Below the pieces are notes generated by a model that did no database searches, was not told the origin of the DNA, and was given only the letters and a program-made list of their open reading frames with translations. DNA of 64,000 nucleotides from sequence record OK283619.1; one strand, 5' to 3'. This document shows positions 13,856 through 29,974 of the stretch, piece after piece. Source of the DNA: Escherichia phage LPEK22. A program made the position numbers and the translations under genes. Each line of letters starts with the position of its first letter. Position 1 is the stretch's first letter.

Positions 13856-13939
13856 ATACCACACGAACTTCCCCGCCGCCTTCAATCCATGGAGGCGGCG
13901 TATAATAACAGCCTGCATAAACACAAACCGAGGATCGCT

Positions 13940-19212: not shown

Positions 19213-20838
19213 TCATGCGCCTTTACCACCAAAATTGCCGCCGTTATCCTCTAACTCCGGTTTTATATCAATTGGACCTGGGCCTGTAGTTGTTACAGGA
19301 GTTGCCCCCGCACGTGAGGCGGCGCGACCAGCGCCTTCAGCATATTTGATGTTGCCTTCAATAGTCTGCGCCACCGACAACTTATCACAAACTATTTCAC
19401 TAGCCAGTATTTTAGGCACTTTCAAAGTATTGGAAACTTCCAACATTTCACAGATGAGACGCAACACGTTCTGTGCCTGTATCTCAGCCAATTGGGAAAA
19501 TTTCATCAACGCTGTTCCAGCGACCACATTGGAATAGTTAGAAGAGTGTAAGTGGTAAACTTCTCCTTTCTTGCGCTGTACTTCAGTCCCACCAATTGTC
19601 AGGTTATGATCACCCCCCACATAATAACGTTTGTCGAACATCGTCAGGTCATAATGATCTTTGACTGATTTATTAACAACATCACCGTCAGGAAGCATTT
19701 GCTTGTAAGACCCAGAAGAGTGCATCCAATGCAAACGTTCCCCGCCTGGAGTGTCATCGACCTCCATAATATGCCCAGCGCGAGAAGCCATAACATTGTT
19801 GTATGGATAACGAGACCCCCCAGCCGAAGGAACCGATACCTCTCCTGTGTTGTCAATATCCTGAACACGACCAGAAGGAGGCGGTGTTTCTTGGACTTTC
19901 GGGGTACGATCCGGAATAGGTTCAGACCATTTACCATTTTGTTGTGCCGGAGCTGCTGAAGCTGTAGTTGCTGGACCTGGCCAACGATAACCCAACACGG
20001 ATGAGCGGCTAAAACGGCTCACCTTCACAGAATCGGATTGGTTTCCCCCGATACACCAAACGTAGTTGGCGTCAAATTTCTGAACGAATGCAACGTGACC
20101 GAATGTCGGGTTGTTCCCGCGCCGGAACACTACAACAGCGCCGTAACGTGGTTCTGACAGAGGAGACCCCCATTGTAAATATGAACGAGCCAAAGCAGAA
20201 CGTGTTGATGTATATCCGGCCTGTATCAGAACCCATCCGACAAACGACGCACACCAACTAACTTCATCTTCTGACGCCCCCAGGGAAGTTGTCTTATGAT
20301 ATTCCAATATCCTTGGGTTGTTATTGAACTTACCAGAATATTCTTTGACACCCAATTCCCCACGAGCCACGGTCATCCACTTCTCAGGATCATATCCGTC
20401 TACTGGTGGTTGTGGATCCGGTTGCGGTTCATCCTCAATCTTAACAGGAACATTCTCGACGGCATTATACTTCTGCCTTTCTATAGATTGAACGACCTGA
20501 CCCAGCGCCAATGGGTTTGTATCTGACCCATCTGTTGGTGTTGCTGCTGGCCATACCCATGCAATACGGATGTTCTGATATGCTTCATCCAAAGCAAACC
20601 CCATGACGTCAGAGCCGACAGTGATACCCGTCGGAGACCAGCCTAAACCTGCCGAGGAGGCGTTAGATGCTGGCATAAGCATTTTACCCCAAGGCAATAA
20701 TTCGGTAGGCAGGAGAGTGGTATCCTCCGTGTGTACCCCATAGATGCGTACTGCGACGCGCCCGTTTTGATCGGGATCATTCACGTCTTCAACGCGCCCG
20801 TAAAACCAACGCAAGTTGTCTAACATATTGAAACCCAT
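19213..20838 (-). CDS. baseplate hub / cell-puncturing protein (gp5-like) with internal Cys/His peptidoglycan-hydrolase-like domain
   Basis: N-terminal gp5 OB-domain signature WFYGRVEDVNDPDQNGRVAVRIYGVH...LPWG; central SWCASFVGWVL...FGHVAFVQ (CHAP / NlpC-P60-like). Confidence 0.6.
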   Translation of the reverse strand: MGFNMLDNLRWFYGRVEDVNDPDQNGRVAVRIYGVHTEDTTLLPTELLPWGKMLMPASNASSAGLGWSPTGITVGSDVMGFALDEAYQNIRIAWVWPAATPTDGSDTNPLALGQVVQSIERQKYNAVENVPVKIEDEPQPDPQPPVDGYDPEKWMTVARGELGVKEYSGKFNNNPRILEYHKTTSLGASEDEVSWCASFVGWVLIQAGYTSTRSALARSYLQWGSPLSEPRYGAVVVFRRGNNPTFGHVAFVQKFDANYVWCIGGNQSDSVKVSRFSRSSVLGYRWPGPATTASAAPAQQNGKWSEPIPDRTPKVQETPPPSGRVQDIDNTGEVSVPSAGGSRYPYNNVMASRAGHIMEVDDTPGGERLHWMHSSGSYKQMLPDGDVVNKSVKDHYDLTMFDKRYYVGGDHNLTIGGTEVQRKKGEVYHLHSSNYSNVVAGTALMKFSQLAEIQAQNVLRLICEMLEVSNTLKVPKILASEIVCDKLSVAQTIEGNIKYAEGAGRAASRAGATPVTTTGPGPIDIKPELEDNGGNFGGKGA

Positions 20839-20892
20839 TAGTCAATTAGAATCATGTGATATTTATGGCGGGGATTTGAAATCTGTCGAATA

Positions 20893-20925
20893 ATATATTA
20901 TAGGAAGCTCTGCTTCCGTTCAACC
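20893..20925 (-). promoter_or_regulatory. candidate promoter for gp5-like gene with palindrome in spacer
   Basis: Minus strand TTGAAC-GGAAGCAGAGCTTCC-TATAAT about 45-75 nt upstream of ATG 20838. Confidence 0.35.
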
Positions 20926-21165
20926 TTTATTCTTTTCGTTCCTACTCGCTGAAGCTCGTAACACCGCCTTGACAGGCAGTCCCATTCCAATGCCATGGAG
21001 GCATAAAGGCGAGGAAAATACTGTACACCTCAGAACATGCGTAGAAAAGGATTATTTTTGCTTCAAAACAAATTCAAACCCCAATTACACAACACTTACT
21101 TCAGCAACAACGGTGTTATAGCAATTTAAGGTTAAACGTTCCTGTCTTAACCTATAAAACAGGTA

Positions 21166-21193
21166 AGCAAAGAAAACCCCACATTACGTGGGG
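21166..21193 (-). terminator. rho-independent terminator (minus strand)
   Basis: Minus strand CCCCAC-loop-GTGGGG followed by TTTTCTTTG. Confidence 0.55.
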
Positions 21194-21344
21194 TTGGAAG
21201 ATTTCTTAGACAATCTAATTTTCAGTGTCTCGGTAAGCAAATCAAGATGCCACGGCATCGATTCACTGATTTCAAATATGCTATAGCCGTGTGCCTTTAA
21301 TTCGTCACACATCACAAAATAGGAGAGTAAATCAATTTCAAAAA

Positions 21345-22151
21345 TTAAATGAAAATCTCGGTGACACTGTTAAATTTGACTTCGTGTTCTTTCCCACACG
21401 AAGGGCATTTAATTTTTGTCGCGTAACGAATACGCGGAATCTTTTTAAAGAAATCATTCGAAATGTCCTGAACAATCTCAGATTCAATATTGTCCCCGAC
21501 CCATTTGACAAATTCATCCTTAATGCGTTGGCGTTCTTTAGCAACTTCTGGATCGATACCAGGTTCAGCCGGATTTTCCACCTTCCAAACCTGACCATCG
21601 TCGTCATACAGACAATCGATAAAGGTGGCAATCATTTGTTCAACAGAGGATGCTTCATTAAGCACTGAGGCATCCGAGAAGGACGGCTGGCGCATCTTTA
21701 TATGATAACCACCTGGTAGATCAAACGTCTCCCTGAAGCCTTCTGGGGACACGCATTTTACCTGATTGAGCGGGATCGGTAACACAAGCTCTTGACCACA
21801 ATCTTTAAGGCCAGAAACTGGTTCTTCACCACCTTCATTGGTTTCGGCTTGAACTTTGTTATTACATTTGTAACGTATCTTCATGACCTCGCCGATAGAT
21901 ATACAGCGCATCTTTAAAAATACTTCTTCAGTAACACCGATTGGCAGTTTACTAAAGGGAACGCCAGCATCAACACAACTGTCAAATAGTTGCTCCAATG
22001 TTGCCACGCGCTCACTCATAGGAGTGTTCGGATCAGCAACCTGAAGTAACATGGTCTGTTGCCCTGCTGTAAAGGCGCGGTATTTGATCACAGTCGGCCA
22101 GAAATCACTTTTATGTGTTCTCTCAGTTTTGGGCAATGATGGTAAATTCAT
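21345..22151 (-). CDS. late-expressed hypothetical structural protein with C-terminal zinc ribbon (possibly baseplate-associated)
   Basis: Exact TATAAATA late-promoter box about 28 nt upstream of ATG plus GGAGA SD; C-terminal CPSCGKEH; adjacent to gp5-like gene. Confidence 0.5.
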   Translation of the reverse strand: MNLPSLPKTERTHKSDFWPTVIKYRAFTAGQQTMLLQVADPNTPMSERVATLEQLFDSCVDAGVPFSKLPIGVTEEVFLKMRCISIGEVMKIRYKCNNKVQAETNEGGEEPVSGLKDCGQELVLPIPLNQVKCVSPEGFRETFDLPGGYHIKMRQPSFSDASVLNEASSVEQMIATFIDCLYDDDGQVWKVENPAEPGIDPEVAKERQRIKDEFVKWVGDNIESEIVQDISNDFFKKIPRIRYATKIKCPSCGKEHEVKFNSVTEIFI

Positions 22152-22179
22152 AATGTATCTCCACGGTATATTGTAATTG

Positions 22180-22187
22180 TATTTATA
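22180..22187 (-). promoter_or_regulatory. T4-type late promoter box TATAAATA
   Basis: Exact TATAAATA on minus strand about 28 nt upstream of ATG of gene 21345..22151, with GGAGA SD between. Confidence 0.55.
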
Positions 22188-22200
22188 ACGAGGACTGAAA

Positions 22201-23837: not shown

Positions 23838-24126
23838 TTACTGGCTGCTGGCAGATATACTGCTTTTCGCCTTGCTGTTGATGACGGCGTTTGTTTGGAT
23901 TAAGGGATTCTTGACATTCCTTCATTCATTAAGTGCCATGGTATCTTTCTATGCGGTTTCGCCACATAGTGACGTCAATGTAAGAGCTGCAAATCAATCT
24001 GATATGTTGGCCGAATATGTTTTGCTGCGTGATAAAGCAAGCAGGATTGTCCTGTTTTCTACGCTGGTGGGAGCAGTTATTATATTTCTACGACACGTAT
24101 TGGAGGCGATTCATGCCGTTTTATGA
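23830..24126 (+). CDS. small membrane protein (98 aa)
   Basis: Hydrophobic segments LLADILLFALLLMTAFVWI and VLFSTLVGAVIIFL. Confidence 0.4.
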   Translation: MINYWLLADILLFALLLMTAFVWIKGFLTFLHSLSAMVSFYAVSPHSDVNVRAANQSDMLAEYVLLRDKASRIVLFSTLVGAVIIFLRHVLEAIHAVL

Positions 24127-24358
24127 TTATGCCTGTACAGGTTGTGGAAATTCGTTTAGTGCTCGAAAATCTTGTGCTGAACGTCATACACCTGAATTAG
24201 AGCCATGTTCTGAATGTGGCGGTGAAATAAAAATGATTATTGGAGCACCAAAGATCGTATCTGGTGTTCGTGGTCCTCAGTCCGCGCCTGATGGCTTCAA
24301 AGACGTTTTGCGTCATATTAAGAAGCAATCAGGGAAGGGGAATACAATCGATGTCTGA
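24113..24358 (+). CDS. FmdB-family zinc-ribbon protein
   Basis: MPFYDYACTGCGNSF...CSECGG pattern. Confidence 0.55.
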   Translation: MPFYDYACTGCGNSFSARKSCAERHTPELEPCSECGGEIKMIIGAPKIVSGVRGPQSAPDGFKDVLRHIKKQSGKGNTIDV

Positions 24359-29953: not shown

Positions 29954-29974
29954 TTTAATTCAGAAGCGTTCAAT

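Follow-up and report, generated by a model that had tools for sequence, protein, structure and literature searches.

The leader of the T4 gene 32 mRNA contains a pseudoknot that acts as an autoregulatory translational operator and is thought to be a protein nucleation site. The putL and putR antiterminator RNAs of HK022 are composed of two stem-loops, and their action on RNA polymerase has been demonstrated. At the level of single helices, there are tandem sheared G·A helices and the unusually stable GCGAAGC mini-hairpin. These are the closest described counterparts of a structured RNA element that we found in Escherichia phage LPEK22, in a stretch of 64,000 nucleotides (OK283619.1) referred to as a whole as the window. 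The element, of around 67 nt, is encoded on the minus strand in the 506-bp gap (20839-21344) between the gp5-like (19213-20838, minus) and gp26-like (21345-22151, minus) genes. It is conserved, strand-specific and pseudoknotted, and it has a paralogue upstream of gp6. A literature search returned no report of a non-coding RNA in Ackermannviridae and no description of this element.

The T4 gene 32 leader is similar in that here, too, a T4-related phage would begin a leader RNA with a compact H-type pseudoknot. Neither the sequence nor the gene is related, however. In the window, over 100 nt and a late promoter separate the pseudoknot from the start codon, an unstructured A/U-rich operator tract is missing next to it, and two further hairpins are part of the motif. 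The resemblance to the HK022 put sites consists in two paralogous, cis-placed structured RNAs per genome, just downstream of a promoter and upstream of genes, cis action being in our case a proposal. In contrast, the put RNAs have neither a pseudoknot nor G·A motifs, no strong downstream terminator is evident here, and the role of the element is a prediction. The last hairpin is a C-G / G·A / A·G / G-C helix, and most of its copies are capped by the mini-hairpin sequence, GC-GAA-GC. This is nevertheless a structural building block and not a functional family, and the loop in the window is UUCA.

The phage is placed in Kuttervirus (Ackermannviridae), and over this region its identity to Escherichia phage CBA120 and the Salmonella phages SFP10 and GG32 is 99.9-100%. 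Even distant relatives, such as Erwinia phage phiEa2809 and Vibrio phage D531, keep a gap of 400-530 bp at the same place, which is therefore a stable family feature. The initial annotation of the window had singled it out as about 500 bp without a credible open reading frame (ORF). The length is correct, and about 345 bp indeed contain no conserved frame, but 21345→21184 is occupied by a conserved small gene. All features of the gap lie on the minus strand, in the sense of the gp5-like and gp26-like genes, and the gap is best described as a compact regulatory region with five minus-strand parts. Comparison with related genomes, as that annotation had advised, thus found both the gap and the structured element preserved across genera.

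Fold and conservation of the element

The motif extends from 21008 to 20942 on the minus strand and comprises a stem (S1), a pseudoknot stem (S2) and two hairpins (P3 and P4). S1 has 5 bp (21004-21000 with 20994-20990, AUGCC/GGCAU), and the 4 bp of S2 join its loop, CCAU at 20998-20995, to a downstream AUGG at 20985-20982. P3 follows with 7 bp (20980-20974 with 20969-20963, ACUGCCU/AGGCGGU), and P4, a tandem G·A hairpin of the form ACGAGC-loop-GCGAGU (20959-20954 with 20949-20944), consists of the pairs A-U, C-G, G·A, A·G, G-C and C-G. In the copies upstream of gp6, S1 reads CAGCC/GGCUG, and one more G-C or G·U pair is possible (GCAGCC/GGCUGY).

The fold was aligned over 21 distinct sequences from the gp5 locus (locus 1) and the gp6 locus (locus 2) of at least five genera, and the pairing statistics cover S1, S2 and P3 together (16 pairs). 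All of the 336 pair cells hold standard pairs, and five pairs show compensatory change: two in S1, one in the pseudoknot (A-U to C-G) and two in P3. None of 500 shuffles reached the observed pairing or covariation score, a control that related sequences may beat even without structure; sliding the partners by 1-3 columns lowered the pairing to 20-56%. The H-type pseudoknot is supported by the joint replacement of CCAU/AUGG by CCCU/AGGG in Taipeivirus and CRW-SP2, at both loci, and by pairing in 21/21 sequences. G·U pairs occupy two P3 positions, in 19/21 and 11/21 sequences. The other strand would have C·A at these positions, and therefore the fold exists only in the gp5/gp6 sense. Among the identities proposed in the initial annotation, a small non-coding RNA is the one for which these data speak: a pseudoknot with two hairpins, covariation, strand-specific G·U pairs and a paralogue upstream of gp6 make the element a good candidate for a structured RNA.

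Next to the G·A tandem of P4, 11 sequences have a C-G pair and 2 a U-A pair, the latter being Aglimvirinae locus 1 and, independently, a Vibrio phage. The loops vary (GAA, GUA, AAC, AUA, UUCA), and at Kuttervirus locus 2 an 18-nt perfect helix takes the place of the P4 loop. Since the loop in this window is UUCA, the conserved part of P4 is the G·A helix and not the GAA loop.

The covariation bears on the reading that the region works as double-stranded DNA only, as a set of protein-binding sites plus gp5 promoters, with pairing as a by-product of palindromic operators and shared ancestry. Many promoter-like elements do occur in the region, and kinship alone can exceed shuffle controls in sequences without structure. 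However, the pairing differs between the strands, G·U being confined to one of them, and a DNA operator has no need of a pseudoknot stem. The stems change with pairing kept, both between paralogues and between genera, and the P4 loop tolerates an 18-nt helix insert that would wreck a spacing-dependent site. We consider this reading very improbable.

Conservation is concentrated on the element. Mean identity to the window in a six-genus alignment (30-nt bins) is 0.76-0.87 over 20959-21048, at least equal to that of the flanking genes, and drops to 0.40-0.48 in the neighbouring spacers 20869-20898 and 21049-21108. No reading frame is kept in the motif: indels of 1-2 nt shift all frames as the downstream nucleotides hold, and each frame has stops or lost starts in some genus, which led us to reject 20942-21008 as a protein-coding gene. 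In some genera the motif is overlapped by short ORFs (20-32 codons), which would suit a decayed gene or a functionless neutral spacer. Against this stand the conservation at or above that of the flanking genes, the frames that are not kept and the maintenance of a paralogous copy at a second locus, so that we give this explanation next to no credence. Both the DNA-only and the neutral-decay readings fit the covariation and conservation poorly. The degraded gene suspected in the initial annotation finds no support either: an intact, conserved small gene had been overlooked, and the remainder shows no frame conservation.

A covariance model of the motif gives a single match in the window (20942-21008, 81 bits, E 1e-26), and no further copies in the window were detected by BLAST or by the covariance model with filters off. 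The scans for known families recommended in the initial annotation gave no identity. Rfam 15 searched with 20000-22200 of the window returned only three snoRNA hits at chance level (E 1.3-3.3, far below threshold), and the gp6 locus (L018 1150-1700) gave no Rfam hit at E up to 10. ARAGORN found no tRNA or tmRNA in the whole window.

Several more specific identities and additional helices were considered and dismissed. The P3-P4 junction of Yersinia phage YEP3 (CUGAUGAGC-GAA-GCGAA) resembles a hammerhead ribozyme core (CUGANGA ... GAA), but this core is not conserved in Kuttervirus, which has UUACGAGC...GCGAG, and there is no partner for stem III and no Rfam hammerhead hit. The boxA-like CGCUCUUA of Aglimvirinae is taken as chance, since neither locus 2 nor the other genera retain it. 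A kink-turn reading of P4 fails because its symmetric G·A helix lacks a 3-nt bulge. The outer helix UCGC/GCGA proposed by RNAalifold clashes with the covarying P4 and is missing at locus 2, which leaves it as an alternative pairing at most. A GAGG/CCUC hairpin 5' of S1 is lost in Taipeivirus and CRW-SP2.

The second copy and the distant relatives

According to BLAST, a 49-bp part of the conserved block (20954-21002) is present twice in these genomes. The second copy, ~86 kb away in SFP10 and outside the window, lies upstream of gp6, a baseplate wedge gene, and is oriented towards it as the first copy is towards gp5. It has an additional 5' hairpin with several G·A tandems, and this hairpin too shows compensatory changes. 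Each genome carries two copies, each upstream of, and in the same sense as, gp5 or gp6. In pattern scans of IMG/VR, JGI metagenomes and 185,579 genomes, true matches were restricted to Ackermannviridae, two per genome, the other hits being GC-rich and due to chance.

Miltonvirus KNP4 (Serratia) and Erwinia phage phiEa2809 keep the promoter block upstream of the element, one or two CGAGC-loop-GCGAG hairpins and the late motif, as well as a hairpin followed by a TATAAT-like sequence (TATAAT in phiEa2809, TAATAC in KNP4). The region upstream of KNP4 gp5 resembles the gp6 upstream region of other genera, and therefore the whole regulatory module was duplicated. Vibrio phages D531 and D509 retain only GGGGUGAGCGAAGCGAACCCC, a P4-type hairpin, which occurs twice: 22 nt ahead of the gp5 ATG, right after TATAAT, and ~600 nt upstream of gp6. 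The Vibrio, Miltonvirus and Erwinia phages keep the G·A hairpin without the pseudoknot, and thus the G·A hairpin is the ancient core. Its tie to both baseplate genes spans all sampled genera, from the Vibrio phages to Kuttervirus.

The stretch of ~780 bp that holds the G·A hairpin upstream of gp6 in D509 (L094 60-850) is mostly non-coding. It also contains a related hairpin, GGGUUAC-GAA-GUAACCC, and two direct repeats of ~60 nt (about 495-555 and 670-730). Separately, a 17-mer, GGTGAGCGAAGCGAACC, was recorded 66 times in unrelated viral contigs (IMG/VR, L097-L160), and in several of them (e.g., L120, L133, L106, L114) it tops a long perfect hairpin. This excess may partly stem from the (GCGAA)x2 repeat and from coding sequence.

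Promoters around the element and its proposed role

Two regulatory sequence motifs, TTCAAT[N14]TATAAT as well as CTAAATAcCcc, have been published for this group of phages as sequence predictions without mapped starts (PMC7283392). In phage AG3, late promoters have been predicted upstream of gp5 and gp6, and homologues of gp55, gp33 and gp45 are encoded (PMC3121705).

In the window, a promoter-like block on the minus strand (21059→21020) precedes the element. It is composed of an A-tract (21059-21055), TTCTAC (21046-21041), a 15-nt spacer and TACAGT (21025-21020), and its predicted start, near 21013, lies just 5' of S1. The pattern TTC(T/A)A(C/G/T)-N15-TA(Y)NNT with the A-tract is kept at both loci in nearly every genus; the one exception seen is the gp6 copy of CRW-SP2 (CATGCT), and the phiEa2809 version reads TTCTCA-N16-TATAAT. 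In its short spacer the block agrees with the TTCAAT[N14]TATAAT motif of the group. As a general promoter type of the window this class was discarded, TTTTCWAS-N15-TANNNT being uncommon (3 observed, 0.5 expected).

Beyond the element stands a second putative sigma-70-type promoter (20923→20897, minus), in which TTGAAC (20923-20918) and TATAAT (20902-20897) are separated by the palindromic spacer GGAAGCAGAGCTTCC (20917-20903). The initial annotation had noticed a small palindrome inside a candidate promoter for the gp5-like gene, and this palindrome, GGAAGCTCTGCTTCC at 20903-20917, does lie between the two hexamers, in an arrangement, TTGAAC-N15-TATAAT, consistent with the published TTCAAT[N14]TATAAT. 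Both this site and TTCTAC-N15-TACAGT depart from that consensus. The sigma-70 scan skips the two short-spacer sites because their spacers fall below its 16-18 nt rule. The hairpin is preserved by compensatory changes in four GC-rich stem versions (GGAAGC/GCTTCC, GGATGC/GCATCC, GGCTGC/GCAGCC, GGCGGC/GCCGCC), KNP4 has an AT-rich one (TTAATTC/GAATTAA) at the matching place, and the -10 is kept as TATAAT or TATAGT. The terminator scan does not call the hairpin an intrinsic terminator, its tail TATAATAT having 4 T in 8; the stem is conserved, and the hairpin may mark the 3' end of the upstream RNA.

The T4-type late promoter predicted for the gp5-like gene has the core CATAAATA (20867→20860, minus), with an TATAAATA-like -10; its full match CATAAATAT (20867→20859) is the only late-type match in the gap. 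The form nTAAATAyC precedes gp26 (22186), gp5 (20866) and other genes of the window, and the motif is conserved in all genera compared, also upstream of gp6. At both loci the RNA motif is followed downstream by the late motif, and late transcripts would therefore lack the former.

Taken as a whole, these features are read by us, with a little more conviction than doubt, as a promoter-proximal structured RNA that is cis-linked to the baseplate operons of gp5 and gp6. Transcription of the late gp26-like unit would run on through a translationally coupled gp51-like small gene and stop at an intrinsic terminator. Some 150 bp past it, the short-spacer sigma-70 promoter (A-tract, TTCTAC-N15-TACAGT) would start an RNA near 21013. 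The nascent RNA would fold at once into the H-type pseudoknot S1/S2, P3 with its G·U pairs and P4 with tandem sheared G·A pairs. Transcription would next reach the conserved GC hairpin that forms the spacer of the second promoter, TTGAAC-N15-TATAAT, then the late promoter and finally gp5. The element is probably a protein-binding or structural platform on pre-late transcripts, which would decide between a stop at the hairpin and continuation into gp5 and gp6. Transcripts from the late promoter would begin downstream of the element and escape its control. The analysis establishes the parts and their conservation (the small coding gene, the terminator and promoter motifs of two classes among them), the fold with its strand, and the duplication; we infer in this scheme the transcription from the weak short-spacer promoter, the start and end of the RNA and its regulatory role on the RNA level. 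The same module lies upstream of gp6, and therefore the element is read as a cis-linked regulatory RNA of both baseplate operons. Action in cis is favoured because the same-sense place upstream of gp5 and gp6 is kept across deep divergence and because the Vibrio hairpin lies in the gp5 leader.

A gene for an FmdB-type zinc-ribbon "putative regulatory protein" is located at 24017-24358 (plus), ~3 kb from the gap, and is near the locus in phiEa2809 too. Its product is a possible RNA partner.

A number of observations weigh against cis regulation by the element. The fold-energy z-score of the region is unremarkable (-0.79 on the minus and -0.20 on the plus strand), and the support for the fold is covariation, perhaps 7-9 independent events among related sequences of one virus family. 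KNP4 and phiEa2809 are without the pseudoknot, only the G·A hairpins remaining. In Kuttervirus, the upstream promoter hexamers (TTCTAC, TACAGT) are weak and absent from the consensus scan output. The hairpin ahead of TATAAT has no U-tract, which makes termination there uncertain, and at locus 2 there is no conserved hairpin-plus-promoter layout. Lying upstream of the late promoter, the element cannot act in cis as RNA on late mRNA. The literature search yielded no Ackermannviridae transcriptome, and the start, end and timing of the RNA are predictions.

The same layout could also belong to an independent small RNA, ~120 nt long and present as two paralogues in each genome, running from the TTCTAC-N15-TACAGT promoter to the GC hairpin and acting in trans on host or phage targets, its position at gp5 and gp6 being incidental. 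The order of the parts suits such an RNA: promoter, structured RNA and hairpin come first, and gp5 has a promoter pair of its own after them. Other window promoters of this class overlap hairpins or terminators of upstream units, and structure begins at the 5' end of the predicted RNA, a frequent trait of stable RNAs. However, both copies lie upstream of, and in the same sense as, the baseplate genes in every genus, even in the Vibrio phages that have P4 only. There is no U-tract terminator and, at locus 2, no conserved 3' hairpin, and no consistent target complementarity was found. We regard a trans-acting small RNA as a rather unlikely alternative, if one to be taken seriously. GGUGUU of the P3-P4 junction complements AACACC, located where the late gp6 transcript is predicted to begin (L018 about 1240-1290), a match not consistently kept in other genera, nor at the gp5 locus.

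T4 oriE lies close to gene 5. According to a review, T4 origins combine a promoter with a downstream unwinding element, and oriE, oriF and oriG lie near points of transcriptional divergence, with repEA near oriE. The gap likewise has a sigma-70-type promoter near a divergence point, and one may imagine an R-loop origin like oriF or oriG, in which the transcript stays hybridised and the displaced coding strand, identical in sequence to the RNA, folds, holding the loop open or offering a clamp-loading site near the late promoters. Both loci lie within ~1 kb of such a point, AT-rich sequence follows the motif, and promoter-like sites are present. Moreover, whether it is RNA or the displaced DNA strand that folds cannot be read from the sequence. 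Against this, T4 origins need no specific RNA structure and their R-loops no specific sequence, which leaves the conserved pseudoknot unexplained. oriE has 12-nt iterons, but there are no iterons in the gap, nor a skew shift: the skew reaches its minimum at ~22.2 kb, at the switch in gene orientation. G·U kept in 19/21 sequences is typical of RNA, G·T being weak in DNA, and the region is not markedly AT-rich save for 21000-21399 (GC 0.37). The replication origin or packaging signal envisaged in the initial annotation is accordingly without support from the iteron and GC-skew analyses, and we judge an R-loop origin quite improbable.

Other promoter-like sequences were recorded in the gap and elsewhere in the window. 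The extended -10-like TTGCTATAAC (21115-21124, minus) is a possible, weakly supported extra promoter, kept as TTGnTATAAy in most genera, missing in phiEa2809 and unreported by the sigma-70 consensus scan. Exact TTCAAT-N14-TATAAT occurs three times (13881, 39487, 41407), with ~0.008 expected from base counts, and N15-16 variants are found at 29969 and 36188. These five plus-strand sites mostly have inverted repeats in the spacer or round the -10, for instance GGGGCTGCT-ATAAT-AGCAGCTCC followed by TTTTGTTTG, or CCCAT-ATAATGC-ATGGG. Terminator or hairpin and promoter thus seem to be built as a single unit throughout the genome. At 13887-13896, in the loop and 3' arm of the 13881 promoter hairpin, CCATGGAGGC is the reverse complement of the pseudoknot stem-loop GCCUCCAUGG; ~0.1 such matches are expected by chance, and this one may be a coincidence.

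Other features of the gap and significance for the family

The gp5-like hub gene on the downstream side of the gap encodes a Gp5 OB domain and a CHAP domain. Its annotated start, ATG 20838, puts MGFN before the MLDN start used by other genera. As these begin ML(D/P), the second ATG, at 20826, is probably the real start, which would make the gap ~12 nt longer. The gp26-like hub gene on the other side matches Pfam T4_baseplate (E 1e-51).

The small gene that follows it (21345→21184, minus, 162 nt) has 53 codons plus a stop and begins with an ATT codon that shares bases with the TAA at the end of the gp26-like gene (TAATT). Its product matches phrog_9633 (E 5.6e-37, residues 1-49 of the 49-position profile) and, weakly, phrog_634, the gp51-like baseplate hub assembly catalyst (E 1.6e-3). 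Homologues sharing an MPWHL motif occur in every Ackermannviridae genus examined, including the Vibrio phages; some GenBank records carry the gene as a hypothetical protein, shortened and starting at an internal GTG or ATG. Substitutions fall mainly on third codon positions, both in codons 12-38 (357 vs 140 and 100) and in codons 2-11 (94 vs 39 and 50), so that the ten codons after the ATT-position codon still evolve as coding sequence. As the codon over the gp26 stop, Aglimvirinae and Vibrio phages have ATG, Kuttervirus and Taipeivirus ATT, Miltonvirus ATC and phiEa2809 ATA. The Kuttervirus gene is without a canonical start codon at the conserved position, and the frame, -1 relative to gp26, is open across the junction. 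Two mechanisms would fit this arrangement: translation may re-initiate on a near-cognate AUH codon, or a -1 slip on U_UUC may fuse the small gene to gp26.

The minus-strand terminator claimed in the initial annotation at about 21166-21193 was recovered by the terminator scan as an intrinsic terminator at ~21195-21166, with a 9-pair stem (21195-21175) and the T-rich tail TTCTTTGCTT, overlapping the stop region of the small gene. Its stem differs in other genera yet pairs (CCCCAC/GTGGGG, TCCCGC/GCGGGA, CCCCGC/GCGGGG), a compensatory pattern in line with that claim, and it is predicted to end the transcription unit of the gp26-like and small genes. The GGTTAA/TTAACC hairpin named in the same annotation is present as a repeat (21130-21135 / 21147-21152), but its pairing is not kept in Taipeivirus or CRW-SP2. 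Three records under other names, OR844942 and OR844944 ("Enterococcus phage Efm 3-10", UNVERIFIED_ORG) and MN871475 ("Pseudomonas phage Pa-sanjiao"), have 94-100% identical Kuttervirus sequence here, which looks like mislabelling or contamination.

The analysis corrects the annotation of these phages, as a conserved gp51-like small gene is missing from many records, and adds a covariation-supported pseudoknotted RNA motif that is outside Rfam and linked with the two baseplate operons. Much work on biocontrol and therapy concerns Ackermannviridae such as ViI, CBA120, Det7 and LIMEstone, and the motif gives a concrete handle on the timing of baseplate assembly in these phages. A bolder and distinctly unlikely possibility is that it represents a new class of phage regulatory RNA, an early product of the host polymerase that fixes when, or in what dose, the two baseplate operons are expressed. 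Such an RNA might bind a phage protein or a small ligand, or it might form an R-loop clamp-loading site that activates the adjacent T4-type late promoters. Early transcription would in this way be coupled to late-gene activation.

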